A program made the translations under genes and the position numbers. From positions 4,919 to 68,918 of the forward strand of contig JBAVAR010000011.1 in NCBI GenBank assembly GCA_049585815.1: DNA of 64,000 nt, written 5' to 3'. Numbering within the stretch: the first letter of the stretch is position 1; each line of letters opens with the position of its first letter. This DNA comes from Solirubrobacterales bacterium. Lineage in GTDB: Bacteria; Actinomycetota; Thermoleophilia; Solirubrobacterales; 70-9. The notes beneath the pieces are model-generated. The model searched no databases. It was given only the letters and a program-made list of their open reading frames with translations, and had not been told where the DNA came from. Shown piece after piece: positions 28,918 through 44,754 of this stretch.

Positions 28918-31900
28918 GTGGCAGCATCTATTTCGAGGATTGGGGGGGCTCGGGCGATCGCCTGTGCCGCGATTGCCGTCGGCCTACTCCTCCTCCTCGT
29001 CCTCCCGGTTTCGCAGAGCTTCGCCAGCGAACACACTGAAGTGACCGGCGAATACGGCAAGGAAGGCCCGAAATCCAGCGGGCTCGGCGTTGGCTGTCAC
29101 CTCGGCTACAACGGTTCCACTGGGCACCTCTATCTCGCGGCTGACGGCAAAATCTACGGTCTCGCCGTCAGTTCTGGCTCGGCAACCCCGCTCGGCGGCA
29201 AATTCCCCGTCACCACTGGAATCAGCACCGGATGCGGCGAACCCGACATCGAAGTCGAAAGCTCGGGCGCCGGCAACATCTACGGCGTCCAGTCCGGAGG
29301 GAACGGCGAAATCTATGGCTGGGACTCGAGCGGCAACGCCCTCGGGACGCCATGGCCGGTATCCGTCCCAGGTGGCGGGGAACTGTGTGGCGTCGACGTC
29401 GGCCCGGGCGGTGGGCCATGGGCCGGCGATTACAGCCAGCAGAAAATATTCAAATATTCCGCAGCGGGGACTGCGACTGGGACAATCAACGTTGGCTTCA
29501 GTCTCTGCAAGCTCGCCGTAGATCACGTCACCGGCGACGTTTACGCCTCCTCTTACGGGGGCGGCCAACTAGTCGAGTTCACCGCCTCCAGCGGCTACAC
29601 CGAAAAAATCACTTTCCCGGCGCCTGGCGGCGAACCCGGTCTTGCCGTCAATGACGCCGAACACAAGCTCTATGTCGGAAACGGCAGCTCCACCGTCAAG
29701 GTCTATAACACCGAAACCACGAGCCTGATCGAAACGATCACCCTCCCCGAAGAAGGAGGACATGGGCTCGCAGTCGATGAAGGGACCGACACCCTCTTCG
29801 TCGCCATCGGCTCGGGCTCCAGCGGCTACATCGTGGAATATCTCGGGCTCACAACCCCGAAGGCGACGACGGGAGAACCGACCGGGAACAGCGAAGTGAG
29901 CGGAACCGCGAACCCCAATGGCGTCGGCCCGATCACCGAATGCTACTTCGAATATGGACTCACCACGGCCTACGGAAGCAAACAGAACTGCGCCGAGTCG
30001 ACACCGATCTCAAGCGAAGAGACAGTTCACGCGAACCTGCCGGGCCTGATCGGCGAGGAAACCTACCACTACCGTTTGGTCCTGACGAACGGCGAACCGC
30101 ACGTCATTGGCAGGGGGGCCGATAAGACAATCACCCCGCACAACGTCAAAGGCCTGTTCACGGAAGCGGCGAGCGAAGTGACACAGGACTCAGCCATCCT
30201 TAACGCCCGTTTCGAAGGCACCAATGAAGATACCCACTACTACTTCGAATATGGGCAGACCACAAATTACGGTCACAAGACGGCGATCCCGCCGGGCGAA
30301 GACGTGGGCGCGACGACCGGGGCCACGCACATTTCCAGCACGATCGCCGGCCTGGAACCCGGTATTACCTACCACTTTCGCGTCGTCGCCGAAAATTCAA
30401 TCGGCCTATCGAAGGCAAACGACAATTCCTTCAGGACGAACCAATTGCCGGCGATCATCTCCGATACAACCAGTCACATCACTGAAACGTCCGCGGAGGT
30501 AGACGCGACGATTAATCCGCATGAATTCGAAACTGACTACTTTGTTGAATACGGACCGACCCCCCAATACGGCTCGATTGCCCCGATTCCTCACGGCATC
30601 CTCGCGCCAGGCAACAGCGCCGAAAGCGTCCCAATCCAGCTTACCGGGCTCCAGGGAATCCGCTATCACTTTCGGGTTGTTGCGGCCAATCGCTGGGGCC
30701 GTGTGGAAACTGAAGACCAGAGCTTCAACTTCTATCCACCATCCTGTCCAAACTCGATCGTGCGTCAGCAGAACGAAAGCGAGTACCTGCCGGACTGCCG
30801 CTCCTATGAGCTGGTCTCACCCGAAGAAACCGGTGCGGTTGAGCTGACCAATTCCGAATTCACCGCGGATCCCTACGCAACCAATCCTCCCCGGTTCGCT
30901 TTTGTGGGATTCCTGGGCGGGATCAACGGCACCGAACCAACCAACTCCGGTGACGATACCTACGTCGCCACGCGAACCAGCATCGGTTGGAAAACCCACC
31001 TGGTGGGAGTACGCGGCTTCGAAGGACAGGCTTCGGGCCCACTGTTTGCGAGCCCGGACTTCAGCAAGTTTTTGAATTTCGATGAACCGCCTTTCTTCGA
31101 AGGACAACCCCAGCCACCGCACAACATTCCGTACACCTGGGACAGCGAAGGCAATCCGCTAGGCCGCTTGCCGGCTAATTTCGAAAGCGTTCCGAAGGCA
31201 GAAGAAAACCTCGGCGCATACCAGCCGTCCCCGGATCTGAATCATCTCGCCTTTTCCTCTAGCAACATTGCCTTCACTTCCGAAGGACTGACGACTCCGC
31301 CCGGGTCTGCCTACGACTACAACGTGGCTACGGAAACCACGACATTGATTTCCAAAAAGGCAAACGGTGAAAACATCGAACAGGAGCCCGGAAACACCAG
31401 TGCCACCAAAGAGGAGATCCTCTTTCCAGGTGACAATCCCGAATATGGCGGATACGGCTATGGCTCGATGGCGCCTCCTTACCATCCGGGGGTGTCGACT
31501 GACGGTTCCCACATTCTGATGTCGACCGCGAGCGCGCCCTACAACCACTTCAACGAACCGCCGAAACCCACGCGACTCTACATGCGGGTAAACGACCTCG
31601 TAACGTACGAAGTCTCACAGGGGCACGACGTCAACTACGTTGGGATGACTGCCGACGGGACTAAAGTCTTCTTCACCTCCCCCGAACGGCTGACCTCCGA
31701 AGACACGGATAACAGCGTCGACCTCTACATGTGGAGCGAAGCAGGAAACAAGCTTACCCTGGTCTCCAAGGGCGGTGAAGGAGCCGAAGGCAGTGGAAAC
31801 AGCGACGAATGCAACGCAACGTGGGTGAGCGGATGCGGGATTCGGCCGCTTGAGACTCAGCATTACACGGATAACTCGATCGCTGGCGAAAGTGGCGAAA

Positions 31901-32784
31901 TCTACTTCTACTCGCCTGAACAGCTCGACAAAACAAAAGGCGTGCCGAACCAGCAGAACCTCTATGTCTACCGTGACGGCAGCCCCCAGTTCGTTGCGAC
32001 GCTCAGCCCGATCGGGGGCGAAGAAGGACCGGTGACGCGCGTCCAGGTGTCCCCCGACGGAAGTCATGCGGCGTTCGTCACCTCCAGTCAGGTGACCAGC
32101 TACAACAACGCCGGCATGGCGGAGATGTACTCATACGACCCCTCCCAGGGGTTGGTCGTCTGCGTCTCCTGCCGGCCGGACGGCTTGCCGCCGACGGTGA
32201 ACGTCGAAGCCAGCAAGATGGGCCTGTTCATGTCGAACGACGGCAGGACCTTCTTCTCGACCGAAGATCCGCTGGTGCCGACGGACACGAACGAAGCGCA
32301 GGACGTCTACGAGTACGTGGAAGGCAGGCCGCAGTTGATTACCCCGGGCACCGGTACGAGCCAGTCACATCTGGGCGGGTACGGCGGCAGCGGCAACAAG
32401 GGGTCCGAAGGGCTCGCTGGAGTCAGCGCCGACGGCGTCAATGTCTACTTCTCCACCCGGGACATCCTCGTTCCGCAAAACAAAAACGGGCCATTCCTCG
32501 CCTTCTATGACGCTCGCACCGACGGCGGTTTCCTCTATGAACCACCGCTGGCTCCGTGCGAAGCTGCCGACGAGTGCCACGGTGCCGGCAATTCCACCCC
32601 GGTGGAACCCACGGTGTCCAGCGAAGGCAGTCTCGGCTCTCGCGGCAACGCGCCAAACCCGAAGCGGCAGAGGGTCAAGCGAAGTCATCACCGGCGCCAC
32701 CACCGAAAGAGCCAGCGCCGCCATGGCAGGCGCCACCATCGCTCCAAGTTCCAGCGGCAGCAAGGAAGCTACCGCCATGCATAG
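28918..32784 (+). CDS. Giant secreted protein A1 (1288 aa), function unknown. It comprises a signal peptide, NHL/YVTN-like propeller blades, three Fn3-like YG.T..YG units, a PD40/TolB-like propeller region, a C-terminal DECHG Cys motif and a His/Arg-rich tail.
   Basis: GTG start with AGGAG SD. Signal peptide MAASISRIGGARAIACAAIAVGLLLLLVLPVSQSFA. Blades such as GNIYGVQSGGNGEIYGWDSSGN, GDVYASSYGGGQLVEF and HKLYVGNGSSTVKVYN. Fn3-like units run from aa ~316-606 (CYFEYGLTTAYG..YHYRLV; YYFEYGQTTNYG..YHFRVVAEN; YFVEYGPTPQYG..YHFRVVAAN). PD40-like repeats include DGTKVFFTSPERLTSEDTDNSVDLYMW and NDGRTFFSTEDPLVPTDTNEAQDVYEY. The end is FYDARTDGGFLYEPPLAPCEAADECHGAG...KRQRVKRSHHRRHHRKSQRRHGRRHHRSKFQRQQGSYRHA. 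Confidence 0.85.
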   Translation: MAASISRIGGARAIACAAIAVGLLLLLVLPVSQSFASEHTEVTGEYGKEGPKSSGLGVGCHLGYNGSTGHLYLAADGKIYGLAVSSGSATPLGGKFPVTTGISTGCGEPDIEVESSGAGNIYGVQSGGNGEIYGWDSSGNALGTPWPVSVPGGGELCGVDVGPGGGPWAGDYSQQKIFKYSAAGTATGTINVGFSLCKLAVDHVTGDVYASSYGGGQLVEFTASSGYTEKITFPAPGGEPGLAVNDAEHKLYVGNGSSTVKVYNTETTSLIETITLPEEGGHGLAVDEGTDTLFVAIGSGSSGYIVEYLGLTTPKATTGEPTGNSEVSGTANPNGVGPITECYFEYGLTTAYGSKQNCAESTPISSEETVHANLPGLIGEETYHYRLVLTNGEPHVIGRGADKTITPHNVKGLFTEAASEVTQDSAILNARFEGTNEDTHYYFEYGQTTNYGHKTAIPPGEDVGATTGATHISSTIAGLEPGITYHFRVVAENSIGLSKANDNSFRTNQLPAIISDTTSHITETSAEVDATINPHEFETDYFVEYGPTPQYGSIAPIPHGILAPGNSAESVPIQLTGLQGIRYHFRVVAANRWGRVETEDQSFNFYPPSCPNSIVRQQNESEYLPDCRSYELVSPEETGAVELTNSEFTADPYATNPPRFAFVGFLGGINGTEPTNSGDDTYVATRTSIGWKTHLVGVRGFEGQASGPLFASPDFSKFLNFDEPPFFEGQPQPPHNIPYTWDSEGNPLGRLPANFESVPKAEENLGAYQPSPDLNHLAFSSSNIAFTSEGLTTPPGSAYDYNVATETTTLISKKANGENIEQEPGNTSATKEEILFPGDNPEYGGYGYGSMAPPYHPGVSTDGSHILMSTASAPYNHFNEPPKPTRLYMRVNDLVTYEVSQGHDVNYVGMTADGTKVFFTSPERLTSEDTDNSVDLYMWSEAGNKLTLVSKGGEGAEGSGNSDECNATWVSGCGIRPLETQHYTDNSIAGESGEIYFYSPEQLDKTKGVPNQQNLYVYRDGSPQFVATLSPIGGEEGPVTRVQVSPDGSHAAFVTSSQVTSYNNAGMAEMYSYDPSQGLVVCVSCRPDGLPPTVNVEASKMGLFMSNDGRTFFSTEDPLVPTDTNEAQDVYEYVEGRPQLITPGTGTSQSHLGGYGGSGNKGSEGLAGVSADGVNVYFSTRDILVPQNKNGPFLAFYDARTDGGFLYEPPLAPCEAADECHGAGNSTPVEPTVSSEGSLGSRGNAPNPKRQRVKRSHHRRHHRKSQRRHGRRHHRSKFQRQQGSYRHA

Positions 32785-35581
32785 CAGTCGACACACATTC
32801 TCACTGCGATGGATTGGCGTGAAGCGCCGCCGCTCCCTTGGCCTTTCCGTCACGACGCTGATTGCGGCGGTCGCCACGGTGGCTGCACTGGCGCCCGGAC
32901 GTGCTGGGGCAGAATCTCCGATATACCAATTTGAAGTCACTCCGTCCACCACTCAGGCAGGCGGGCACCCGAATCTCCACACGCTGGTTTGGGTCGGGAA
33001 TCGCTATACGCAGCAGATTCCTCCGCCCAGCTGCGACTGCCAGGACCCGAAGGACGTGACTGTTGAAATGCCGACCGGCGTCATCGGGCTTCCGCAGGCG
33101 ATGCCGAAATGCAGCGCCGCCGACTTCGCCGACCAGGAATGCCCGCCGGAGACGCAGATCGGGGCCGCCGTCATCAGCATCAACGCGGAACCGCCCGGCA
33201 CCTCGGGTTTTGGCAGGATCGCAATTTTCAACCTCGAACCGCACCCGGGCGAAGCGGGGCTTTTCGGCTTCACTTTCCCGCTCCTGCGTTTTCCCGTATA
33301 CCAGTCGATCAACTCGCGGACCGAGAGTGACTACGGCCTGGATGTAGGCACGGTCAACATCACTCATCTTCTGCCGCTCGCCTTTGTCGAAGAGAACATC
33401 TGGGGCGTGCCGGCATCGCCCGAACACGATGCGGAACGGATGCCGACTGGATGGGAATCGTTCTTCGACGGGATAAATCCTCCGACGCCGTCCACCGAAT
33501 TGGAAGTCCCATTCATCAACAACCCGACCACGTGCGGTCAGCAAAACCTCACCGCGAATGTGACCGTCCTTTCTTACGACAAAGGAGTGACTCACGCCAG
33601 CCATCCCTATCCTCCGACCACAGGCTGCGATCAGCTCAGCTTCAATCCGAGCCTCTACGCACAGCCCACGACGACGGCGACCGACTCGGCCTCCGGCCTT
33701 GACGTCGATCTCCAGGTGCCCCAGCAGCTCAGCCCGGAAGTAGCCTCACCCTCGGAGATCCGTGCGACGACGGTCGCGCTGCCCTCCGGATTCTCCATCA
33801 ATCCCAACGCCGCCGATGGAAAGACGTCGTGCTCGAACGCCGAAGCGGAGATCGGCACCCGACTCGAAGCGCAATGCCCGGAAGACTCGAAGGTGGGCAC
33901 CGTGAGCGTGGACAGCTCGGCGCTGCCGGGACCGATTCCCGGCTACATCTATCTCGGTACGCCGTTGCCCGGCGATCGCTACCGGCTGATTCTCACCGCC
34001 AATGGCTACAACGTCCACGTCAAGCTGCCGGGTTCGGTTCTCGCCAACGAACAGAATGGCCAGGTCACCGTTTCCTTCCAGGACCTTCCCCAGACTCCGT
34101 TCTCCGCGTTCAACATGCACTTCTTCGGTTCCGAACGGGGACTGCTCGCGACCCCCGAAAAGTGCGGCACCTATGGCGTCAGCAGCACCTTCACGCCGTG
34201 GGACAACCTTCTCTCCGAACAGACCTCCACGCAGTACTTCACCCTGAGCAGCGGTCCTGGCGACAGTAGCTGTCCGGCCTCCAGCCGCCCGTTCAACCCG
34301 ACCTTCAGCGCAGGCGTGGCGGACAGGACCGGCGGAGCGCATTCGCCATTCTCGGTCGTTCTCAAGAGGCCCGACGGCGATCAGAACCTGAGCGGACTGG
34401 ACGTGACGACCCCGCCGGGGCTCGCCGCGACCCTCGCGGGCGTCTCCTATTGCCCCGATGCGACGCTCGCCGCGGCTGCCACATCGGTGTCTGGCCTATC
34501 CGAGCTTGCCAGCCCGAGCTGTCCCGCGAGCTCCCGGATCGGGACCGCCTCAACCGCCTCCGGTGCGGGCGATCATCCTCTCTATCTACCTGGTCAGGTC
34601 TACCTGGCGGGACCTTACAAGGGCGCCCCGCTCAGCCTCGCGGTGATCACCCCCGCCGTTTCCGGCCCCTATGACCTGGGCAACGTCGTCGTGCGCGCCG
34701 CGCTCCAGGTCAACCCGGTGAACGCCCAAATCACCGCGGTAACTGACCCCCTGCCCCAGATCATCGACGGGATCCCGCTGCGCCTGCGTCAGATTCAGGT
34801 CGATCTCAACCGGCCCCAATTTGCGCTCAACCCAACCAACTGCTCTCAGTTTGCAGTCCAAGCGAAGATTTTCGGCAATCAGGGGGCTGAGGCGGACCCC
34901 GCGGCGCCCTTCCAGGTCGCCAACTGCGCCGAAATGCCTTTTGGCGCGAAGCTGCAGCTGATGCTCCACGGGGGCACGAAGCGGGCTCAGACCCCGGCCT
35001 TGACGGCCGTACTCACCGCTCGTCCCGGAGAAGCGAACATCGCCAAGACCGTGGTCACGATGCCAAACTCGATCTTCCTCGACAACGCTCACGTCCGCGG
35101 GCCGTGTACCAAAGTACAGTTCGCGGCAAACAGCTGTCCGCCCGGCTCGATACTCGGCACCGCAAAGGCCGAATCACCGCTGCTGGCCCAGCCGCTTGAA
35201 GGAAATGTATATCTGGCCACCGGCTATGGCCACAAGCTGCCGGACATCCTCGCCGCGCTGAAAGGGCAGGTCAACATAAACCTCGATGGTCGCGTGGATT
35301 CGGTTCACCAGAGCCTGCGCACCAGTTTCGAAGCGGTGCCGGACGTGCCGGTGACAAGGTTCGTACTCAATCTGCGCGGAGGAAGTAGGGGCTTGCTGGA
35401 AAATAGTGCCAACCTCTGCGCCAAGGTGCAGCGAGCGACCGTCAATATGACGGGTCAGAACAACCTCCGCACCAACACGAAGCCAAAGCTGCAGCTTTCG
35501 TGTGGCGGACACGGCAACAGCAGCAACCTCAAGCGTAAGCAGCAAAGGCGCCCGGCTCCGACGGGGAGAGGGACAAGGTGA
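32777..35581 (+). CDS. Secreted four-module protein B1 (934 aa), function unknown. Paralogue of B2.
   Basis: I place the start at ATG 32777 (SD AAGGAAG), overlapping the A1 stop as ATGCATAG. The N-terminus is MHSSRHTFSLRWIGVKRRRSLGLSVTTLIAAVATVAALAPGRAGA (signal). The mature N-terminus is ...FEVTPSTTQAGGHPNLHT. A Cys-pair module recurs about four times (LP.G...NP...C....CP..S.(I/V)GT...P(L/I).G.(V/I)YL...(L/V)P..P(F/V)..F..........L...C). It ends in a basic C-terminus ...LKRKQQRRPAPTGRGTR. Confidence 0.85.
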   Translation: MHSSRHTFSLRWIGVKRRRSLGLSVTTLIAAVATVAALAPGRAGAESPIYQFEVTPSTTQAGGHPNLHTLVWVGNRYTQQIPPPSCDCQDPKDVTVEMPTGVIGLPQAMPKCSAADFADQECPPETQIGAAVISINAEPPGTSGFGRIAIFNLEPHPGEAGLFGFTFPLLRFPVYQSINSRTESDYGLDVGTVNITHLLPLAFVEENIWGVPASPEHDAERMPTGWESFFDGINPPTPSTELEVPFINNPTTCGQQNLTANVTVLSYDKGVTHASHPYPPTTGCDQLSFNPSLYAQPTTTATDSASGLDVDLQVPQQLSPEVASPSEIRATTVALPSGFSINPNAADGKTSCSNAEAEIGTRLEAQCPEDSKVGTVSVDSSALPGPIPGYIYLGTPLPGDRYRLILTANGYNVHVKLPGSVLANEQNGQVTVSFQDLPQTPFSAFNMHFFGSERGLLATPEKCGTYGVSSTFTPWDNLLSEQTSTQYFTLSSGPGDSSCPASSRPFNPTFSAGVADRTGGAHSPFSVVLKRPDGDQNLSGLDVTTPPGLAATLAGVSYCPDATLAAAATSVSGLSELASPSCPASSRIGTASTASGAGDHPLYLPGQVYLAGPYKGAPLSLAVITPAVSGPYDLGNVVVRAALQVNPVNAQITAVTDPLPQIIDGIPLRLRQIQVDLNRPQFALNPTNCSQFAVQAKIFGNQGAEADPAAPFQVANCAEMPFGAKLQLMLHGGTKRAQTPALTAVLTARPGEANIAKTVVTMPNSIFLDNAHVRGPCTKVQFAANSCPPGSILGTAKAESPLLAQPLEGNVYLATGYGHKLPDILAALKGQVNINLDGRVDSVHQSLRTSFEAVPDVPVTRFVLNLRGGSRGLLENSANLCAKVQRATVNMTGQNNLRTNTKPKLQLSCGGHGNSSNLKRKQQRRPAPTGRGTR

Positions 35582-38500
35582 CCTGCACGGGATCGACAAT
35601 CGGGCGACGCATGCGGGTTGCCATTCTGGGAGCCTGCCTGGCAGCGGGAGTGTCGCTGCTTGCTGCCGGGCCCGCGGAGGCGGTGCAGTGGACCCCCCAC
35701 TCCTATGAAAAGAGCATTAGCGGATGGTCGGGCGGTGGTAGGAGCGTTGCGGTTGATCAGCAGAGTGGGGACTTCTACATAGCCACAATCGAACCCGGGC
35801 TCCGTATCTACAAATTCAATGCTCAGGGTGAACCGAGCGCATTCAGCGCCCTCGGAGGGGCGAGCTATATCCAGGTTACGAGCGAAGAAGTCTGCAGCTG
35901 CAGTGAAGCTCGCGTCGTAGTTGATAATTCCGGAGGGTCAGATCAGGGGCGCATCTACGTAATCAGCAGTTGGCGTGACAAAACCTGGGCCTTCGAACCC
36001 AGCGGAACTCCGGTCGGCGGAGCCTTCCCAATAGACAGCTCTGAAGGGGAGCTGGCGATCAGCCCCACCACCGGCAATTTCTTTGTGACCGGAACGCCCC
36101 TGCTGGAACGCGCATATGAATACAATCACGCTGGGGAAAAGACAGGCAACTACGTCGATCTCAGTACGTGGGGAAGCACCGACATGGTGCTAAGTCCGAC
36201 TGGAAACTGGTACACCTACCATGGGTATCAGGAACCGCGTGGAATTCTTAAACAGAACGCGTCGGGCGAACTAATTGAACACCTGTATTCCCAATTTTCA
36301 GAAGCCTTCAACATCAATTCGAAATCCGGCAACGTGCTCTCCGCCCGAGAAGAAGAAATTGCTGAATTTGATCCCAACGGTAACGAATTACCGCGCTTCG
36401 AATACGAATCCGAAGGTGAAGCGAAAGCAGTCGCGGTAAACGCGGTCAACAATTACATCTATGTGCTAAAGAATTACGGCGGCAACGAGCTGAGCATCTA
36501 TGCACCGGGAGCTCCAGTAACGGCCCCGTCGGCCGAAAACGAATCGCCCACGAATATCAAAGGAACGTCTATGACGTTGCATGCCTCGGTTGAACCCGAA
36601 GGCGTGACGACGACCGAATGTGCCTTCGAATTCACAACCACAGAAGAATACGGCTATATAGATTACGAAGAACACAGAGTGCCCTGCGAACAGGGGAAAG
36701 CAATATCCGGCAGTTCTTCCACACCTGTCAGCGCGATGATTACTGGCTTGACCCAAGGAGCCACCTACCACACACGCCTTGATGTCGGCAACGCAAACGG
36801 CGAATTCCATACCAGGGACGCCAAGGTGATCCCCTCCGAACCCCCGGTCATCGAAAGCCCCTACATCGACAGCGTCCATACCGACAGCGTCGAATTCCAC
36901 GCTGAAATCACCCCGGAAGGGGCTCCGACCACTTTCCACGTGCTCTACGGAACGGCCAACTGCGCCGCCGAACCCGAAGCCTGTTCCCAGACCCCCGAGA
37001 CCTCCTCGATCGGAAACGGTCTACTGCCGATCGCGGTCAGCGCCCACGTGACCGGGCTGAAGCCGGGAACCACATACCACTACATAATCGTCGCGACCAA
37101 CCAGAGCGCCACCGTTGAATCGACAAACGGGACCTTCACCACGTTCCCCTATACACCGGTGCTCGAAGACAGCTGTCCCAATGCTCACGTTCGTCAACAG
37201 ACCAGCGCCGCGCTGCTGCCGGACTGCCGTGCCTATGAGCTGGTCTCGGCCGGCAGGGCCGGTGGATACGATGTCGAGTCGTTCCTCAACGCCGAACAGG
37301 AACCGTTCGGTGGCTATCCCTACGCGGAGAATCCGCCACGCGCCCTCTACGGCGTCCACGACGGAGCAATTCCCGGTAGCGGACACCCGACCAATCACGG
37401 TCTCGACCCCTACGTCGCGACCCGCGGTGAAGAAGGTTGGAGCACATCCTACGTCGGCATTCCGGCCAATCTTCCGTATTCGACTGAATCGTTCGCTTCG
37501 CCGCTGGCTGGCGCAGACTCCTCGTTGGACACGTTCGCCTTCGGCGGTCCGGGACTGTGCTCGCCATGCTTCGCGGACGGCACCACCGGCGTGCCGGTGA
37601 CACTTCCCAACGGCAGCTTGGTGCAGGGCATGGCCGGATCAGAGCAGCCTGGCGCCGGCGCGAGCGCCAGCATGCTCGTGAAGAAGCCGCTCTCCTCTGA
37701 CGGCAGGCACCTGATCTTCGGCTCGGACTCCGAATTCGAGGCCGGTGCCGGAAGCCCCGCGATCTACGATCGCAACCTCACCACCGACGTCACTCATGCG
37801 GTCTCGAAGCTGCCCGGAGGCGGAAGCATTCCCTGTCTGATGGACTGCAGCTCCGACGGTCTCGCGGAGCTCGATGTCTCCAGCGACGGCTCGCGCATTG
37901 TCATCGGGCAGTTGATCTCGAAAGATGCCGCGGGCAATCGCTACTGGCACCTGTACATGAATATCGGCGACTCTGGCCAGACGATCGACCTTACCCCTGG
38001 GGCGACGGAAGGTGCTCTCTACGACGGGATGACCGCCGACGGGTCCATGGTGTACTTCACTACGAAGAACCAGCTGACCGGCCAGGACACTGACAGCAGT
38101 GCCGACATCTACCGGGCCGACGTCACCACCTCCGGCGCGAACCTTTCGCTCGTCTCGATCGGCAGCGGCGGCAGCGGCAACTCCGAATCCTGCGAACCGC
38201 TCGGCGACTCCCAGAATGAACATTGGAACAGCGTCCAATCCACACCCAACTGCGACGCTGTCGCGGTCGGCGGCGGCGGCGGAGTCGCGGCGGCCGACGG
38301 AAGCATCTATTTCCTCAGTCCCGAACTGCTGGACGGAGGCGTCGAACCCACGGACGGCGTCGCCAACCAGCCCAACCTCTACATCTCCCGCCCCGGATCG
38401 CCCCCCAGCTTCGTCGCCACTCTTGAGTCGAGTGCCACCGGTCCGACGCCGCCGCTGGAGGAACATCGGTTCGCGAAGTACTTTGGCCCGAGCAGCAACA

Positions 38501-40113
38501 CCCAGTTCGTCGCAGTTGACAACTCCGGCGGGCCCTCCGACGGCGACGTCTACGTCGTCAACCGCAATGAACAGGTGATTCGCAAGTACGACTCCGAAGG
38601 CAACCTGGTGACCAGCTGGCAGAACAATGGCGTTTTCGATCCCAGTTTGGCGCACGAAATCGCCGGCATTGCTGTGGGAGGCCCGGAAAATGCTCTCTAC
38701 GTCGCGATCGACGAAGAAGTCAACTCCGGGGAAAACCGGATATTCGAGTACGACGAAAACGGCAACCAGCTCGCGTCAACTTCAAATGTTGAAAAGGCTC
38801 CGGAACCGATCGGAATCGCGGTCGACTCGCAAGGGAATGTCTTCTACGAGGGCTACGGCGTGGTCATGCGCTGGCAGAAGGGCAAAGGATCGACTGAAAT
38901 CGCTGGCGGCACTTACAACTCGCCGCCGCCGACGGGACTCGCTGTCAATCCGAGCACTGGCACTCTCTACGTGAGCTACGGCGGCCAAGAAATCTCGCGC
39001 TACGCGTTCAGCTCAGAAGGAAAGGTGATCGAACCGAGTGGCGAATGTGCGTCCCGCTGCGAACCAACGTCGACCTTTGGCGCCGGCGAAGTCTCGAACG
39101 CGAGCGGCATGTTCGTCGACCCCACCCGCGGCGAACTGTACGTCGACGAGGGCAACAAGATCATCCGCTTCCTCGGAACTGGCACCCGTGCCCCCGGGCC
39201 GGATGTTGGGGTCAAGAAGATCAACAACTCATCCTCGGTTGCGCTCAGCTCCTCCACCGATCTCTATGCAACTAACGCCGGCTCCGAAGGTGCCGACGTG
39301 GCGGCGTTCGGCCCGATCCGCCTGGCCCCCGATCCCCGCACCGACAATCCGCTCGTGCTCGACTCCGTGAACGAAGCAGGATCCCGGCGCACCGGTGATT
39401 TCCAGATCACACCGAATGGAGACAAGGCGGTCTTCCTCTCGACGATCGCCTACACCGGTCACGTGACCGGTCGGCGGGAGGAGGTGTTTCTCTCCGAATC
39501 GACGGGCGGGACGCTCGATTGCGTCTCCTGCAATCCGACGAATGCCCAGGCGCTCGGCGGGGCCTCGCTCGCCCGTGACGGGCTCAGCCTGACCGATGAA
39601 GGGAGGGTGTTTTTCAACTCGACCGATGTCCTCTCCCCCCGTGACTTGGATAACCGCGAAGACGTCTATGAGTGGGAGAACGGCAAGACCAGCCTGATTT
39701 CCACCGGCCTCAGTCCCTTCAACTCCACGCTGTTGACGGCGAGCGCTAACGGCAAGGATGCATTCTTCTTCACACGGGACACTCTGGTTCCCCAGGATCA
39801 GAACGGCAGCCTCGTAAAGCTCTACGACGCTCGCGAAGGTGGCGGCTTTCCCTATACGCCGCCGCCGGTGAGTTGCAAAGCGTCCGACGAGTGCCACGGT
39901 CCCGGTACGCAGGCAGCTCCGGCACCGGCCGTCAACTCGATCACCGGCACCGGTGGAAATCACGTGCAATCGACCCACGCGCTGAAGTGCCGACACGGGC
40001 AGGTTAAGCGGCACGGCCGCTGCGTCAGGCAGCACAGGCGCGGCCACCTCCGCCATCACCGGCGCGCCAAGAGCAAGCGAGATGGCGGGCAAAGCACGGG
40101 GGGGAGGCGATGA
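35578..40113 (+). CDS. Giant secreted protein A2 (1511 aa), function unknown. Paralogue of A1 with an extra internal NHL-like propeller block.
   Basis: GTG 35578 (SD GGGGAGAGGGA, GTGA overlap with the B1 stop). The alternative ATG 35611 gives MRVAILGACLAAGVSLLAAGPAEA. Blocks shared with A1: SCPNAHVRQQTSAALLPDCRAYELVS, NPPR..YVATRGEEGWS, LDCVSCNPTNAQ, DEGRVFFNSTDVLSPRDLDNREDVYEW, LYDAREGGGFPYTPPPVSCKASDECHGPG. The tail is LKCRHGQVKRHGRCVRQHRRGHLRHHRRAKSKRDGGQSTGGRR. Confidence 0.85.
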   Translation: MTCTGSTIGRRMRVAILGACLAAGVSLLAAGPAEAVQWTPHSYEKSISGWSGGGRSVAVDQQSGDFYIATIEPGLRIYKFNAQGEPSAFSALGGASYIQVTSEEVCSCSEARVVVDNSGGSDQGRIYVISSWRDKTWAFEPSGTPVGGAFPIDSSEGELAISPTTGNFFVTGTPLLERAYEYNHAGEKTGNYVDLSTWGSTDMVLSPTGNWYTYHGYQEPRGILKQNASGELIEHLYSQFSEAFNINSKSGNVLSAREEEIAEFDPNGNELPRFEYESEGEAKAVAVNAVNNYIYVLKNYGGNELSIYAPGAPVTAPSAENESPTNIKGTSMTLHASVEPEGVTTTECAFEFTTTEEYGYIDYEEHRVPCEQGKAISGSSSTPVSAMITGLTQGATYHTRLDVGNANGEFHTRDAKVIPSEPPVIESPYIDSVHTDSVEFHAEITPEGAPTTFHVLYGTANCAAEPEACSQTPETSSIGNGLLPIAVSAHVTGLKPGTTYHYIIVATNQSATVESTNGTFTTFPYTPVLEDSCPNAHVRQQTSAALLPDCRAYELVSAGRAGGYDVESFLNAEQEPFGGYPYAENPPRALYGVHDGAIPGSGHPTNHGLDPYVATRGEEGWSTSYVGIPANLPYSTESFASPLAGADSSLDTFAFGGPGLCSPCFADGTTGVPVTLPNGSLVQGMAGSEQPGAGASASMLVKKPLSSDGRHLIFGSDSEFEAGAGSPAIYDRNLTTDVTHAVSKLPGGGSIPCLMDCSSDGLAELDVSSDGSRIVIGQLISKDAAGNRYWHLYMNIGDSGQTIDLTPGATEGALYDGMTADGSMVYFTTKNQLTGQDTDSSADIYRADVTTSGANLSLVSIGSGGSGNSESCEPLGDSQNEHWNSVQSTPNCDAVAVGGGGGVAAADGSIYFLSPELLDGGVEPTDGVANQPNLYISRPGSPPSFVATLESSATGPTPPLEEHRFAKYFGPSSNTQFVAVDNSGGPSDGDVYVVNRNEQVIRKYDSEGNLVTSWQNNGVFDPSLAHEIAGIAVGGPENALYVAIDEEVNSGENRIFEYDENGNQLASTSNVEKAPEPIGIAVDSQGNVFYEGYGVVMRWQKGKGSTEIAGGTYNSPPPTGLAVNPSTGTLYVSYGGQEISRYAFSSEGKVIEPSGECASRCEPTSTFGAGEVSNASGMFVDPTRGELYVDEGNKIIRFLGTGTRAPGPDVGVKKINNSSSVALSSSTDLYATNAGSEGADVAAFGPIRLAPDPRTDNPLVLDSVNEAGSRRTGDFQITPNGDKAVFLSTIAYTGHVTGRREEVFLSESTGGTLDCVSCNPTNAQALGGASLARDGLSLTDEGRVFFNSTDVLSPRDLDNREDVYEWENGKTSLISTGLSPFNSTLLTASANGKDAFFFTRDTLVPQDQNGSLVKLYDAREGGGFPYTPPPVSCKASDECHGPGTQAAPAPAVNSITGTGGNHVQSTHALKCRHGQVKRHGRCVRQHRRGHLRHHRRAKSKRDGGQSTGGRR

Positions 40114-42926
40114 TGGCAGCTGGATCGACCAGGGAGCTCCGCCGCGCCGGGGCGACCGCGAGGTCACTACATCCGCGAGCGCCCCGTATCCTGCGCGTGC
40201 TCAGCCTCACGATTGGTCTCTCGCTGCTGCTGGTCGGCTTCACTGTCGGCACCGCACAGGCGACCGAGCGGATCGAATCATTCTCGACCACCACCTCGAC
40301 GACGCAGGCGGGGGGGCACCCGGATCTACACACCTCGTTTTCGCTCAACAGTCCGGGACTCCCTGAGGCCGCGGAAAACGTGACCGTCGAAACTCCGCAG
40401 GGCGTGTTCGGCAACCCGAACGCGATTTCGCAGTGCGCCTCGGTGGTCTTCGCTGACGAGGAATGCGCCCCCGCGTCCCAGGCGGGTGTGATCACGGTGT
40501 ACGCCCGCTATGAAGGCGATCCGAATTTTCTCCTGGGTACTGCGCCGATCTATGATCTTGTGCCGTCTGAAGGCGAAACGGCGCTGTTCGGCTTCATCGT
40601 ACCGATTCTGAACATCCCGATCCAGATCCCGGTCGCGGTGCGAACGGACAGCGACTACGGATTGCGCTTCAAGGTATCCGAGATCACCCAGGTCACGCCG
40701 CTGTCGGCGGCGAATCTCACCTTCTGGGGCTTTCCAGCGGAAGCAAGTCACGAATCCGAACGCTTTCCGCGGGGAGCCAGCGGGCTACCGGCCGGGTGTG
40801 CCGGGTTGGCGAACACGAGCTGCCTCGCCAACCCCACTCCGGTCTACATCGCGATCCATCCGCTCACCGATAATCCGACGACCTGCAATGGGCAGTCACT
40901 GATGACCACACTCAAAGTGCAGACCTATCAGGATCCCAATCACGAATCGGAAGCGCACGACGAATATCCCGCGACGACCGGGTGCGAAAAAGAGCTGTTC
41001 AAGCCGCTCCTGTACTCGCAGCCCACGAGCACCACCACCGATTCTCCCTCTGGCCTCGACATCACGCTTTCCGATACCCAGTTCCTCGGCTTCGCCGTCT
41101 CCCCTTCGGAGATCCGCGAATCAACGGTCGTTCTTCCGGCCGGCCTGACGATTAATCCGGACGCAGCCGACGGTCAGACGGCATGCACTGATGCCGAGGC
41201 GAACTTCGAAAGCGAAGCCGCCGCATCCTGCCCTGACAGCTCGAAGATCGGCACTGTCGCGCTGCACACTCCCGCCCTCGCCGGGCCGCTCGAGGGCTCG
41301 GTCTACATGGGCGAACCGAAGCCGAACGACCAGTACCGCCTGTTCATGGTGGTCGACGGCTTCGGTCTCCACGCCAAGCTTGTCGGCTCGGTCAGGCCTG
41401 ATCCTGTCACCGGGCAGGTGTCTGTCCACTTCGAAGATCTGCCCCAGGTTCCCTTCAACGAATTTGACCTTCATCTGTTCTCCTCCGACCGGGGCCTGAT
41501 GGCGACGCCGACTGTCTGCACGATCTACAACACGGAAGCGACCTTCGTGCCGTGGAACAATCTTTTGCCGACGGCCAGTTCGAGTCAGGTCTTCGGCCTC
41601 ACCGCCGGTCCCAACGGTGGGCCCTGTCCGGGAATAATCCGTCCGTTCCATCCGACCTTGGCCGCGGGAACCACTCACTCACTTGCCGGCGGCTTCTCCA
41701 GCTTCTCGCTGAAGTTGAACCGCGAAGACGGCGACCAGTACCTCGGCAAGTTGAACTTCACCATGCCTCCAGGCCTCACCGCCAACCTGCACGGCGTCAC
41801 CTACTGCCCCGAATCCGACATCACAGCTGCCGCCAACACCCTCGGCAAGGTCGAGCAGGCCGATCCCAGCTGCCCGGCCTCCAGCGAAATTGGCACTTCC
41901 AACGTCGCCGCTGGACCCGGATCGCACCCCTTCCACGCGGTGGGCAAGATCTACCTCTCCGGGCCTTTCCAGGGCGCTCCCCTCAGTCTGGTCGCGATCA
42001 CTCCCGCTCTCGCCGGTCCCTATGACTACGGCACGGTGGTTGTTCGTGTGGCCCTCCACATCGATCAGCGGGATGCGCACGTGGTTGCCGACTCCGAAAC
42101 GGTTCCCTCGATCATCGGCGGCATCCCGCTGCGGATGCGCGAAATCAGGGTCAACATCGAACGTCCAAACTTTATGATCAATCCGACAAACTGTTCGCCG
42201 TTCTCGGTCGCCTCACAGGGCATCGGCGACCAGGGAACGGTCGCCAACTTCAGCTCCTACTTCCACGTCAACGACTGCTCGACCCTCCCCTTCAACCCGA
42301 AGATGACGGTCACCCAGCTCGGTGGCCATAGGTTCACCGCCCGCGGCAAGGACCCTGCCCTGCAGTTTGACCTCAACACCACCGAAGGCGACGCCAACCT
42401 CAAATCTGTCTCGGTGACGCTGCCAAAGGCCTTTGAGATCGATCAGCGCCACCTCGGCAACCTCTGCTCCCGCTCCCAGCTTGAAAAAGAACACTGCGCC
42501 GGGCGCCAGCCGATCGGCTTCGTCAAAGACGAAACGCCGCTGCTCGAAAAGCCGCTCGAAGGCCCCGCCTACGCGGTCTCCGGTTTCTCCAATGGCAAAA
42601 ACGTCCTGCCCCACATCGCCTTCATCCTCGGCGGCCAGGTCACCGTCGTGCCCCAGGCCGAATCGATGACGCTTGGAGGCGGACGCCTCAAAACTACGGT
42701 CCCGGTGATCCCCGACGTGCCGATCGGCCACTTTCGCTTCACCCTGCTCAGTGGCGCTCAGGGCTACGTCTCAAACACCGAAAGCCTCTGCGCCGCCGAT
42801 CCGGTGATCGCCGTGCAGCTGAACGGCCAAAACGGCAAGTCGATCACCCAGCAGGTGAAGACGAGGACCGCCTGCAGGGCAAAGAAGCAACACAAGCGCA
42901 AGGCAAGGCGCCACCGCCGGCGCTGA
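40110..42926 (+). CDS. Secreted four-module protein B2 (938 aa), function unknown. Paralogue of B1.
   Basis: ATGA overlap with the A2 stop (40110-40113), SD GGGAGG. It has a hydrophobic N-terminal segment RILRVLSLTIGLSLLLVGFTVGTAQA. The mature N-terminus is ..FSTTTSTTQAGGHPDLHT. It is collinear with B1 throughout, for example VVLPAGLTINPDAADGQTACTDAEANFESEAAASCPDSSKIGTVALHTPALAGPLEGSVYMG. The tail is KTRTACRAKKQHKRKARRHRRR. Confidence 0.85.
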   Translation: MMAAGSTRELRRAGATARSLHPRAPRILRVLSLTIGLSLLLVGFTVGTAQATERIESFSTTTSTTQAGGHPDLHTSFSLNSPGLPEAAENVTVETPQGVFGNPNAISQCASVVFADEECAPASQAGVITVYARYEGDPNFLLGTAPIYDLVPSEGETALFGFIVPILNIPIQIPVAVRTDSDYGLRFKVSEITQVTPLSAANLTFWGFPAEASHESERFPRGASGLPAGCAGLANTSCLANPTPVYIAIHPLTDNPTTCNGQSLMTTLKVQTYQDPNHESEAHDEYPATTGCEKELFKPLLYSQPTSTTTDSPSGLDITLSDTQFLGFAVSPSEIRESTVVLPAGLTINPDAADGQTACTDAEANFESEAAASCPDSSKIGTVALHTPALAGPLEGSVYMGEPKPNDQYRLFMVVDGFGLHAKLVGSVRPDPVTGQVSVHFEDLPQVPFNEFDLHLFSSDRGLMATPTVCTIYNTEATFVPWNNLLPTASSSQVFGLTAGPNGGPCPGIIRPFHPTLAAGTTHSLAGGFSSFSLKLNREDGDQYLGKLNFTMPPGLTANLHGVTYCPESDITAAANTLGKVEQADPSCPASSEIGTSNVAAGPGSHPFHAVGKIYLSGPFQGAPLSLVAITPALAGPYDYGTVVVRVALHIDQRDAHVVADSETVPSIIGGIPLRMREIRVNIERPNFMINPTNCSPFSVASQGIGDQGTVANFSSYFHVNDCSTLPFNPKMTVTQLGGHRFTARGKDPALQFDLNTTEGDANLKSVSVTLPKAFEIDQRHLGNLCSRSQLEKEHCAGRQPIGFVKDETPLLEKPLEGPAYAVSGFSNGKNVLPHIAFILGGQVTVVPQAESMTLGGGRLKTTVPVIPDVPIGHFRFTLLSGAQGYVSNTESLCAADPVIAVQLNGQNGKSITQQVKTRTACRAKKQHKRKARRHRRR

Positions 42927-43023
42927 GCAGAGGGGCAAAGCGAACCTTTGAGCGTCAAAGCGGGTTTCAGCTGCTGGGACTCGCAAGCAATGAAAAGCCA
43001 GCGAGCAAGGAGCTAGAACACAG

Positions 43024-43653
43024 ATGAAGGCAAAGCTGAAGGGCAAGCTGACCTACGCCAACGTGGTCTCCACGCTGTGCCTGTTCGTGCTCTTGGGGGG
43101 AAGCGCCTACGCGGCCCTGAAGATCCCCCGCAACTCGGTCGGCACCCGCCAGCTGCAGGCAAAGTCGGTGACCAACGGCAAGCTCGCAAACGGCGCCGTC
43201 AACGGCGCCAAAATCGCCGAAGGATCGATCACCGGCCAAAACATCAACCTCTCTGCCCTTGGCACCGTGCCCAATGCCGCCAACGCAGTCTCCGCCCAAA
43301 ACGCCAACACCGTCGATGAACACTCGGCCTCCTGCCCCCAGGGAGCGACTCTGATCAGGGGCCTTTGCTTTGACGCCCAGCCCAACCCAGCGGTCTCAAC
43401 GGTCAAGGAAGCAGCCGACGATTGCGCCGCCAAGGGCGGCTACCTGCCCTCCCCGCTTGAGCTCTACTCGGTACGCGGCGTGCTCAACCTGGGCACAGGC
43501 GTCGGCTCTGATCATCAATACACCGATGAGTTCTACGGCAATACCAACGGCACCAACTACCGCACCGTCGTCGTCGACGGGACCGGGGCGATCAGTGAGT
43601 CTGAAATCAACGCCCCCTCCAAATACACCTGCGTTTATCCGCTGGTGCGGTAG
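43024..43653 (+). CDS. N-terminally anchored/secreted protein with short V/I-x-(T/N)-x-K/Q-(L/I) tail-fibre-like repeats and a Cys-containing C-terminal globular domain (possibly C-type-lectin/DUF1566-like)
   Basis: SD AAGGAG. The N-terminus is MKAKLKGKLTYANVVSTLCLFVLLGGSAYAA. The repeats read LKIPRNSVGTRQLQAKSVTNGKLANGAVNGAKIAEGSITGQNINLSALG. The C-terminal domain reads ...CPQGATLIRGLCFDA...VKEAADDCAAKGGYLPSPLELYSV...KYTCVYPLVR. The fold assignment is tentative. Confidence 0.7.
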   Translation: MKAKLKGKLTYANVVSTLCLFVLLGGSAYAALKIPRNSVGTRQLQAKSVTNGKLANGAVNGAKIAEGSITGQNINLSALGTVPNAANAVSAQNANTVDEHSASCPQGATLIRGLCFDAQPNPAVSTVKEAADDCAAKGGYLPSPLELYSVRGVLNLGTGVGSDHQYTDEFYGNTNGTNYRTVVVDGTGAISESEINAPSKYTCVYPLVR

Positions 43654-43989
43654 GACGGCTCGGTAGGCGTTTTGAGGCGCCATCGCCGGAGGAAGTTCAG
43701 CTGCGAATCCAGCTGACGCGCTTCCCCGGCTGGCGATGATCGAGGAAGCAAGTTGACAGCCCCAAGGCAGCCAAGGGAGACCTCCCAACTCTCCGCGCCG
43801 GGTCCGCTCCCGGTTTCTAGCCCACCCCAAGTAGATCTGCCCCTCCTAGGTTTACGGCCTGGGGACAGAGGTCCGGGTCCTATCCTCGGCGTAAGCCCCT
43901 ACCGTGAGGAGCGAAATTGATGAGGAACAAGGTGCATGACCTGGCTGCTAGTGGCGACTATGTTTCACTCCGAGGAGAGACGGACTGAG

Positions 43990-44754
43990 ATGCCCAAGAA
44001 GACGGTGATTGCTTTCACGCTGGCCTTGGTGGCGCTTGCGCTTGCCACCTCCGCCTATGCCCTGAAGCTGACAGCAGGGCAGATCGTGATCGAGGCCGAA
44101 GGCGGCTTTGCCCCCTCAGCACTGCCCAAACACGAAAACGCCCCGATCACCCTGCACGGAGGTGGCAGCGTCTCGACCCTCTCCGGCGCCCTGCCGCCAA
44201 TTCTGAGGACGATCACGATCGACTTCGATCGCCACGGCTCGGTCCAGACCACTGGCCTTGAAGTATGCACCTCCGCAAAATTGCAGGCGACGACCACTGC
44301 GGCCGCCCGCCACAACTGCCCCGGCGCGATTGTCGGTGAGGGCGCGGGCACCGCGACCATCGCTTTCCCCGAATCGGTCCCCTTCAGCCTCACCTCGCCC
44401 ATCACGATCTTCAACGGCCCCAAAGTTCACGGCGATGACACCGTGCTCGCCCACGCCTACCTCTCCTCTCCCGTCTCGACCACCTTCATCGTCCCAATCG
44501 TGATCGAACGGATCCACGACGGCGTCTACGGCTATCGCACCAAGGGCACGATTCCCACGATCGCCGGCGGATCCGGCATCCCAATCTCTGGCCACCTCAA
44601 GATCGGCCGGACGTGGACCTACCGGGGCAAGCACTACTCCTACGTCAATGCCCGCTGCGAAACGGGCCACCTCCAGGCTCGCGGCGAATTCGAATTCAAA
44701 GACGGCACCTTCCTTGAGGGGGACTTCCTCAAACCCTGCCGGGTTCGGGGGTAG
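43990..44754 (+). CDS. Secreted protein equivalent to a single copy of the B1/B2 module (254 aa)
   Basis: ATG 43990 follows gaggagag. Signal peptide MPKKTVIAFTLALVALALATSAYA. The stretch ...LEVCTSAKLQATTTAAARHNCPGAIVGEGAGTATIAFPESVPFSLTSPITIFNGP...IPISGHLKIGRTW...VNARC follows the same order of elements (C-x-CP-x-(I/V)G ... IFN.(E/G)P ... terminal C) as the first B module (KCSAADFADQECPPETQIGAAVISIN...RIAIFNLEP). Confidence 0.7.
   Translation: MPKKTVIAFTLALVALALATSAYALKLTAGQIVIEAEGGFAPSALPKHENAPITLHGGGSVSTLSGALPPILRTITIDFDRHGSVQTTGLEVCTSAKLQATTTAAARHNCPGAIVGEGAGTATIAFPESVPFSLTSPITIFNGPKVHGDDTVLAHAYLSSPVSTTFIVPIVIERIHDGVYGYRTKGTIPTIAGGSGIPISGHLKIGRTWTYRGKHYSYVNARCETGHLQARGEFEFKDGTFLEGDFLKPCRVRG

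Follow-up and report, generated by a model that had tools for sequence, protein, structure and literature searches.

We analysed a 64,000-nucleotide (nt) stretch of a Solirubrobacterales genome (contig JBAVAR010000011.1, positions 4,919 to 68,918; hereafter the window) that carries a row of six genes, which we call A1, B1, A2, B2, C and D. B1 and B2 are exported paralogues, each composed of four diverged copies of one all-beta domain of about 200 amino acids (aa) with four cysteines. By sequence comparison this module is an undescribed, lineage-restricted repeat domain family, seen in Solirubrobacterales and related Actinomycetota, and D, a remote relative of the modules of B, consists of this domain in one free-standing copy. 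In our reading the module is a stalk domain, stapled by disulfides, in exported proteins that are associated with the envelope and act as partners of the propeller proteins encoded by the A genes. The structural half of this reading is near certain, and to the reading as a whole we assign a probability of about one half.

The four-fold repeat escapes pairwise comparison and is found by profiles. B1 and B2 are 41.5% identical over their full length by BLASTP, and BLASTP comparison of each protein with itself returned no internal match even at E ≤ 10. Because the method is too insensitive, we do not count this null result as evidence against a repeat. Aligned with itself in hhalign, a whole-protein profile of B2 gave off-diagonal alignments only where the offset was one module (P = 3.6e-17), two (1.1e-17) or three (1e-3). 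Profile-profile comparison of individual modules with close homologues only linked three of the pairs (P = 3e-11, 4e-8 and 2e-5), and once distant paralogues taken from related loci had been added, in-register alignments were obtained for every one of the six pairs (P from 1.5e-14 to 3.2e-4); reversed-sequence controls gave P of at least 0.0013, mostly over short alignments. A hidden Markov model (HMM) of the module placed its four copies in B1 at aa 51-286, 289-475, 506-719 and 734-909, and modules in the two proteins are about 200-245 aa long. A first-pass annotation made from the letters of the window had given the coordinates of B1, B2 and D correctly, and had proposed both the four-fold module and a self-comparison to verify it. 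BLASTP is blind to the repeat, but profile self-comparison recovers all three shifts, so the proposal holds with significant internal similarity (P down to 1.1e-17).

Modules at different positions are only 14-26% identical, whereas modules at the same position in B1 and B2 are 32-51% identical, and no DNA-level repeat was found inside either gene. The lack of a DNA-level repeat indicates that the module duplication is old, and together with the two ranges of identity it places the four-module protein before the split between B1 and B2.

The cysteines follow the same periodicity. In an alignment of 121 B family members, 18 cysteines are invariant and strictly periodic. Each B2 module contains one close and one wider pair (Table 1), and module 1 alone has an additional pair (230/238) within an insertion of about 45 aa. 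All four cysteines are kept in 611 of 619 complete module instances, so that patterns of cysteine loss are uninformative as to pairing partners. An AlphaFold2 model of B2 (predicted local distance difference test score (pLDDT) 81.7, predicted template modelling score (pTM) 0.71) is all-beta and falls into four blocks of equal element order, each module having about 11-12 strands plus a helical insert. In the predicted structure the first cysteine pair brackets this short insert, which follows the third strand, and the second pair brackets the last beta-hairpin. The model of D (pLDDT 86.2) is also all-beta and has the element order of the module, namely three strands, Cys, two short helices, Cys, about six strands, Cys, a hairpin and Cys, with the cysteines at the same positions. 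Neither the B2 nor the D model gives a sign of a missing or donor strand in the modules. We describe B2 as having a predicted tandem beta-sandwich fold, with putative intradomain disulfides suggested by the invariant cysteine pairs.

Foldseek searches with the B2 model matched only multi-domain beta-sandwich proteins (E 1e-7 to 1e-4), the top matches being the thigh and calf domains of integrin alpha (E 1e-7 to 1e-6), with the C-terminal domains C123 of streptococcal AgI/II, ClfA and complement MG domains as further matches; these are legs or stalks of multi-domain surface proteins. The D model had no significant match in the Protein Data Bank (PDB) or among viral structures. Structure prediction, a check suggested with the first-pass annotation, thus yields all-beta models of B2 and D with matching element order and generic beta-sandwich matches only.

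D is too far removed from the modules of B for simple comparisons to connect them. BLASTP of D against B gave E of 2.7-7.9 only, and comparison of D with single module profiles built from close homologues only was not significant (P 0.13-0.41). Diverse single module profiles gave marginal results, the best being module 3 with P of 0.004, or 4.8e-4 with secondary structure. This match (score 26) was not accepted alone because reversed profiles reach scores of about 20-29 by chance. A profile merged from all four modules aligned with D across 146 columns (P 2.2e-5) and paired three cysteines of B2 with those of D (566/93, 588/110 and 695/223), against P of at least 0.17 for reversed controls. 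We also ran a HMMER model built from B modules only on 10,170 open reading frames (ORFs) from 162 related loci and the window. At E < 0.1 it found 10 of 185 D-family ORFs and none of 9,834 others (Fisher P 4e-18); at E < 10 it found 54 D-family ORFs and 15 others (Fisher P 2e-83). The D-family matches listed for this model cover similar ranges of the profile. In a MAFFT alignment of the eight window modules with D, four cysteines, two prolines and one glycine are aligned in all nine sequences, D being 13-23% identical to the modules. The agreement of merged profile, B-only HMM and MAFFT alignment settles, at the level of sequence, the homology of D with the module, a kinship that the first-pass annotation had suggested. 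The D family itself comprises 2,289 matches and has four invariant cysteines (93/110 and 223/250 in D).

The module belongs to no family that we could name. Searches of Pfam-A, NCBIfam and PHROGs returned no match for B2 or D and noise only for B1, and searching PDB sequences with a profile was likewise empty at E ≤ 10. The first-pass view that the module matches nothing known therefore stands, generic fold matches apart, and the module HMM that it had proposed did recover further members. Run against 1.84 billion representative proteins, this HMM recovered 7,099 clusters (defined at 50% identity) at E ≤ 1e-3, and 2,117 at E ≤ 1e-30. Among the best 158 representatives of the 7,099 clusters the number of copies per protein ranges from 1 to 31, and 114 of the 158 have four. 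The four-fold arrangement emphasized in the first-pass annotation is thus correct for B1 and B2, but the module is a general unit used in 1-31 copies. The giants of the family come from Actinomycetota assemblies: P0241 has 7,161 aa and 31 modules, P0246 has 6,729 aa and 26, and P0244 has 4,362 aa and 20, with no recognisable domain besides the module in any of them and no Pfam domain above cut-off in the large multi-module members. Named members are all annotated as 'hypothetical protein', except for one mislabelled as CusF, and belong to Solirubrobacterales or Actinomycetota assemblies. We found no literature on this family in Solirubrobacterales or Thermoleophilia. We would class the module as a new domain family among the repeat beta-sandwich surface proteins, a type already well known.

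B is constantly accompanied by the propeller protein A and not by D. Among 80 metagenome loci chosen because they contain B, 77 were testable for the upstream gene, and in 76 of these an A-type gene lies directly 5' of B. The order A-B-A-B is a common arrangement in these loci and was also seen in one genome locus. Within the window, the A1 stop and B1 start overlap by 8 nt (ATGCATAG), the B1 stop and the GTG start of A2 overlap as GTGA, and the A2 stop and B2 start as ATGA; a purine-rich stretch stands immediately 5' of each of the three junctions. These overlapping stop and start codons suggest that B is made in step with A. Gaps of 97 nt and 336 nt separate B2 from C and C from D, respectively.

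A1 consists of a signal peptide, an NHL/YncE-like propeller, three Fn3-like domains, a second propeller-like half and an Arg/His-rich tail. Its paralogue A2 (30-33% identical to A1) has an additional NHL-like propeller region and likewise ends in an Arg/His-rich tail. The Pfam and NCBIfam matches of A1 are weak (fn3, Pur_ac_phosph_N, YncE and LpqB propeller), and its second propeller-like half shows a faint LpqB-propeller hint only, with S-x-DG repeats visible by eye. The module HMM found no module in A, and no catalytic domain scored above its curated threshold. In 10 of the 158 representatives (P0350, P0345, P0327, P0279, P0306 and five others) an A-like part is naturally fused to four modules. 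The A-like part of these fusions is either an NHL propeller plus Fn3 or the propeller-like second half of A, and they too carry a polybasic C-terminal tail. Most hold only part of A, and some may be gene-call joins across a 4-nt overlap.

Two further observations concern the A proteins. A 41-nt motif of the TxxCYFEYG type is present in three copies in A1 (29935-30572), about 297-300 nt apart in the tandem Fn3-like domains, and once in A2 (36613-36653). Elsewhere in the window, a minus-strand ORF of 676 aa (13618-15648) resembles the Fn3-like region of A1 (aa 413-512, E 5e-12) and may encode another exported protein of the same general kind.

For the downstream gene order we used the 32 B2-like metagenome loci in which 1.8 kb or more of DNA follows the B gene. 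Eighteen of these end in C-D or D, 13 of them as C-D-D and the other five with D, and three continue with C only; these counts make the A-B-A-B-C-D row of the window a recurrent cluster. The first-pass annotation had drawn attention to a multi-module and a single-module form side by side, and this co-location is conserved in the 18 loci. C is a conserved member of the cluster and not a module: the module HMM has no match in it, and its residues 29-95 match the phage tail-fibre repeat family phrog_892 (E 6.4e-9). A prophage origin of the cluster, at which this repeat hints, was ruled out, as the neighbouring genes that were scanned are metabolic or regulatory, with no phage genes close by, and B2 and D have no PHROG match. 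A second sample consisted of 80 genome loci chosen for the presence of D. Two or more D-family genes stand in tandem in 46 of them, and where B is near, 12 of 13 loci have D downstream of it and in the same orientation (binomial P 6e-7). In at least two of these loci a gene between B and D encodes a protein of about 600 aa that joins an NHL-like propeller to a C-terminal D-like module (L075, 6399-8204; L077, 5801-7624).

All six cluster proteins have a single N-terminal hydrophobic segment, and signal peptides are conserved across the family. The C-termini of B are strongly basic: in 120 B homologues the last 25 residues have a median K/R/H content of 44%, against 8.9% overall. The tails of A1 and A2 are Arg/His-rich, with K/R/H at 18 of the last 30 residues of A1, and D has no polybasic tail. 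None of the six proteins contains an LPXTG motif or a C-terminal hydrophobic or membrane segment, and Pfam and NCBIfam gave them no match to a pilin family, to SLH or to any other known S-layer or wall-binding domain. No sortase, usher, chaperone or polymerisation gene turned up among the cluster proteins or the scanned flanking genes.

Table 1. Genes, modules and basic tails of the A-B-A-B-C-D cluster (positions in the window; residues and cysteine pairs in protein numbering)
Feature	Position	Strand	Description
A1	28918..32784	+	1288 aa; signal peptide; gene partner to B1
A1 3' end (tail)	32680-32784		polybasic, without hydrophobic segment
B1	32777..35581	+	934 aa; signal peptide, four modules, basic tail
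B1 module 1	32912..33640	+	aa 46-288; most divergent module, has an insertion
B1 module 2	33641..34285	+	aa 289-503
B1 module 3	34286..34939	+	aa 504-721
B1 module 4	34940..35533	+	aa 722-919
B1 3' end (tail)	35500-35581		polybasic, without hydrophobic segment
A2	35578..40113	+	1511 aa; A1 paralogue; gene partner to B2
A2 3' end (tail)	40000-40113		polybasic, without hydrophobic segment
B2	40110..42926	+	938 aa; signal peptide, four modules, polybasic tail (KKQHKRKARRHRRR)
B2 module 1	40263..40997	+	aa 52-296; close Cys pair 109/119, wider pair 259/292; invariant QAGGHPD motif
B2 module 2	40998..41639	+	aa 297-510; close Cys pair 359/374, wider pair 470/506
B2 module 3	41640..42290	+	aa 511-727; close Cys pair 566/588, wider pair 695/723; module nearest D
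B2 module 4	42291..42884	+	aa 728-925; close Cys pair 786/796, wider pair 894/922
B2 3' end (tail)	42870-42926		polybasic, without hydrophobic segment
C	43024..43653	+	209 aa; N-terminal hydrophobic segment, tail-fibre-like repeat stretch, four-Cys C-terminal domain
D	43990..44754	+	254 aa; signal peptide and single module; no basic tail
D module	44059..44751	+	aa 24-254; invariant Cys 93/110, 223/250

We propose that the module would act as a stiff stalk, leg or spacer unit of cell-envelope proteins, stapled by two disulfides that its four cysteines would form. Actinobacteria fold their exported proteins oxidatively through MdbA (PMC9974433), which makes disulfides in the module plausible. 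The A protein would supply distal propeller heads and the B protein a four-module leg, the two acting as one assembly. The fusions, in which an A-like part precedes four modules and a basic tail, suggest that the head points away from the cell, the tail sits next to it and the modules lie between. Through this tail the protein would be retained, with no sortase needed, at the anionic envelope of the Gram-positive cell. C, with its tail-fibre-like repeat and Cys-containing head, and D, with one module and no tail, would be exported accessory proteins whose genes close many such clusters on the 3' side. A typical Gram-positive adhesin has its adhesive domain at the N-terminus, carried by a stalk of repeated immunoglobulin (Ig)-like units with internal cross-links (PMC10619420). 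For the A-B assembly the likeliest role would be adhesion or ligand capture at the cell surface, and the module copy number would set its reach.

Several observations weigh against this stalk reading. The Foldseek matches have template modelling (TM) scores of about 0.12, so the fold class goes no further than 'large beta-sandwich', and a pTM of 0.71 for a four-domain chain may reflect a compact arrangement and not an extended rod. No recognised adhesive or catalytic domain is present in the cluster proteins, and it is from their charge alone that the polybasic tails may be taken as a sortase-independent envelope anchor. The accessory genes are also less constant than the row in the window suggests: 10 of the 32 B2-like loci have no A, C or D downstream, and 67 of the 80 D-selected loci have no B within 10 kb. 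As these clusters lack C and D and the majority of D genes are located away from A-B clusters, D cannot count as an obligatory component of the system.

The first-pass annotation had likened the combination of multi-module and single-module proteins to the major/minor-subunit or cap/shaft logic of fibre systems. In such a polymerising surface fibre or pilus, the shaft would be made of B and the tip fibre of C, and D would serve as the cap or as a minor subunit. The B-C-D(-D) order kept at many cluster ends would fit this arrangement, as would the membership of D in the fold family of the B modules, the tail-fibre-like repeat of C and the downstream, same-strand position of D in 12 of the 13 loci where it is near B. 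Yet the six proteins are devoid of LPXTG and pilin motifs, sortase, usher and chaperone families were not met in the cluster proteins or scanned flanking genes, and the modules show no sign of a donor or missing strand. The constant partner of B is A. B is absent within 10 kb of D in the 67 D-selected loci mentioned above, and 10 of the 32 B2-like clusters lack both C and D. With no sortase signal or pilin match and with most D genes away from A-B, the cap/shaft logic is left without direct support, and we regard a fibre as unlikely.

An S-layer-like envelope lattice, in which the A/B pairs would be structural and their basic tails would sit on anionic wall polymers with no specific ligand, would account for the abundance of paralogues within a genome (a 412-kb contig, for example, has four B2-like proteins and a 679-kb contig three), for the conservation of the polybasic tails and for large beta-rich exported chains that have no recognisable enzymatic domain. 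For S-layer proteins, one gene or a few genes with high expression are the usual case, and dozens of diverged A/B pairs do not resemble this; neither SLH nor another known S-layer anchor was found with Pfam or NCBIfam, and module copy numbers of 1-31 suit stalks that set reach better than a lattice, which we hold to be improbable. We also doubt that the cluster encodes an extracellular enzyme or substrate-capture complex with catalytic or substrate-binding A propellers and with B and D binding carbohydrates or other polymers. Propellers are catalytic or substrate-binding in some lyases and peptidases, the host organisms are soil bacteria that degrade polymers, and A combines two propeller regions with Fn3-like domains of the type found beside phosphatases and glycosidases. 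Against such a complex, no catalytic domain passes a curated threshold, the modules match no known carbohydrate-binding family, and the conserved module residues are structural ones (Cys, Pro and Gly).

The stalk reading places the cluster close to several known systems and identical to none. Stalk adhesins of Gram-positive bacteria include the 51-domain adhesin of Mobiluncus mulieris, Cpe0147, proteins with Cna-B/SpaA-type pilin domains, and AgI/II and ClfA with their DEv-IgG domains. Like these, the B proteins come from a Gram-positive lineage and are exported chains of predicted tandem beta-sandwich domains; each domain would be linked internally by covalent bonds, here putative disulfides; the copy number is highly variable and reaches dozens; and the specialised part stands N-terminal of the repeats. 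AgI/II C123 and ClfA are also among the best Foldseek matches of B2. Unlike those domains, the modules have no sequence match to these families, are larger (about 200 aa) and would contain two disulfides instead of isopeptide or ester bonds. The six proteins also differ from sortase-anchored adhesins and pilins (MSCRAMM, Cna-B and SpaA) in having no LPXTG motif and, in A and B, a polybasic tail in its place, and in most cases head (A) and leg (B) have a gene each, the two being coupled in translation. Long repeat adhesins with Ig-like spacers, of the Bap/SasG type or of the RTX type (MpIBP, for instance), are similar in that the number of tandem beta-sandwiches sets length, which in the giants here extends to 7,161 aa and 31 modules, and dissimilar in domain family, anchoring and secretion route. 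Repeats in Bap/SasG-type and RTX adhesins are near-identical in DNA, whereas the modules described here are 14-26% identical and have no DNA repeat.

The A-like fusions further recall integrin alpha, in which an N-terminal propeller is likewise followed by a large, Cys-bearing beta-sandwich leg; in the fusions the disulfides of that leg are putative. This likeness is one of domain class and not of superposition, as the match has E of 1e-7 but a TM score of about 0.12. The propellers of A are of NHL, YncE or faint LpqB type with no FG-GAP match, A and B have no transmembrane segment or counterpart of the integrin beta subunit, and common descent is unsupported. A bolder version of the stalk reading, which we put forward as speculation and think rather unlikely, is that the A-B pairs constitute, in soil Actinomycetota, an unrecognised two-gene, sortase-independent surface receptor with a propeller head, a disulfide-stapled leg of four modules and polybasic Arg/His tails that hold it to the wall. 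There would be dozens of such paralogous pairs per genome, and D and C would serve as docking or capping partners, a view to which we give the same slight weight. If it were true, A-B would be a bacterial analogue of integrin-like head-on-leg receptors, made from a new domain family.

The surroundings of the cluster are ordinary. Scanned neighbours have metabolic or regulatory functions and include a TetR regulator, dehydrogenases, a carboxyltransferase and acyl-CoA dehydrogenases, and the nearest relatives are all from metagenome-assembled genomes of Solirubrobacterales or Conexibacteraceae. An ORF with two TetR_N matches (26697-28070, minus strand) lies upstream of the plus-strand cluster in divergent orientation, and a TetR gene is likewise divergent upstream of a lone D homologue in another locus (L002, 9227-9802). 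Promoter and terminator scans gave counts not above those of shuffled sequence, so the boundaries of the operon are drawn by gene spacing only. The mechanical ORF for B1 begins at 32441, within A1; we place the start at ATG 32777, a position consistent with the signal peptide, with the alignment of the family and with the 8 nt shared with the A1 stop. Long antisense ORFs, such as those on the minus strand at 32801-33604, 37639-38655 and 39229-40167, resemble the shadow ORFs of high-GC DNA. Between 26000 and 46000 the GC skew of the window is persistently negative and the AT skew mostly positive, and G+C is slightly reduced in the cluster (0.57-0.63, against about 0.65 elsewhere in the window). 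These shifts may reflect the amino-acid composition of the cluster proteins rather than a foreign origin.

Repeat stalk domains in surface proteins are familiar, and the findings touch no long-standing question. Solirubrobacterales are abundant in soil and rarely cultured, and to our knowledge almost nothing is known of their cell surface. The signature of about 200 aa and four cysteines is absent from Pfam and NCBIfam and so offers annotators a new domain model, for a family linked with a conserved gene cluster and a constant partner of the propeller type. For experimenters, the cluster provides a defined set of proteins for studies of adhesion, sortase-free anchoring and extracellular disulfides.

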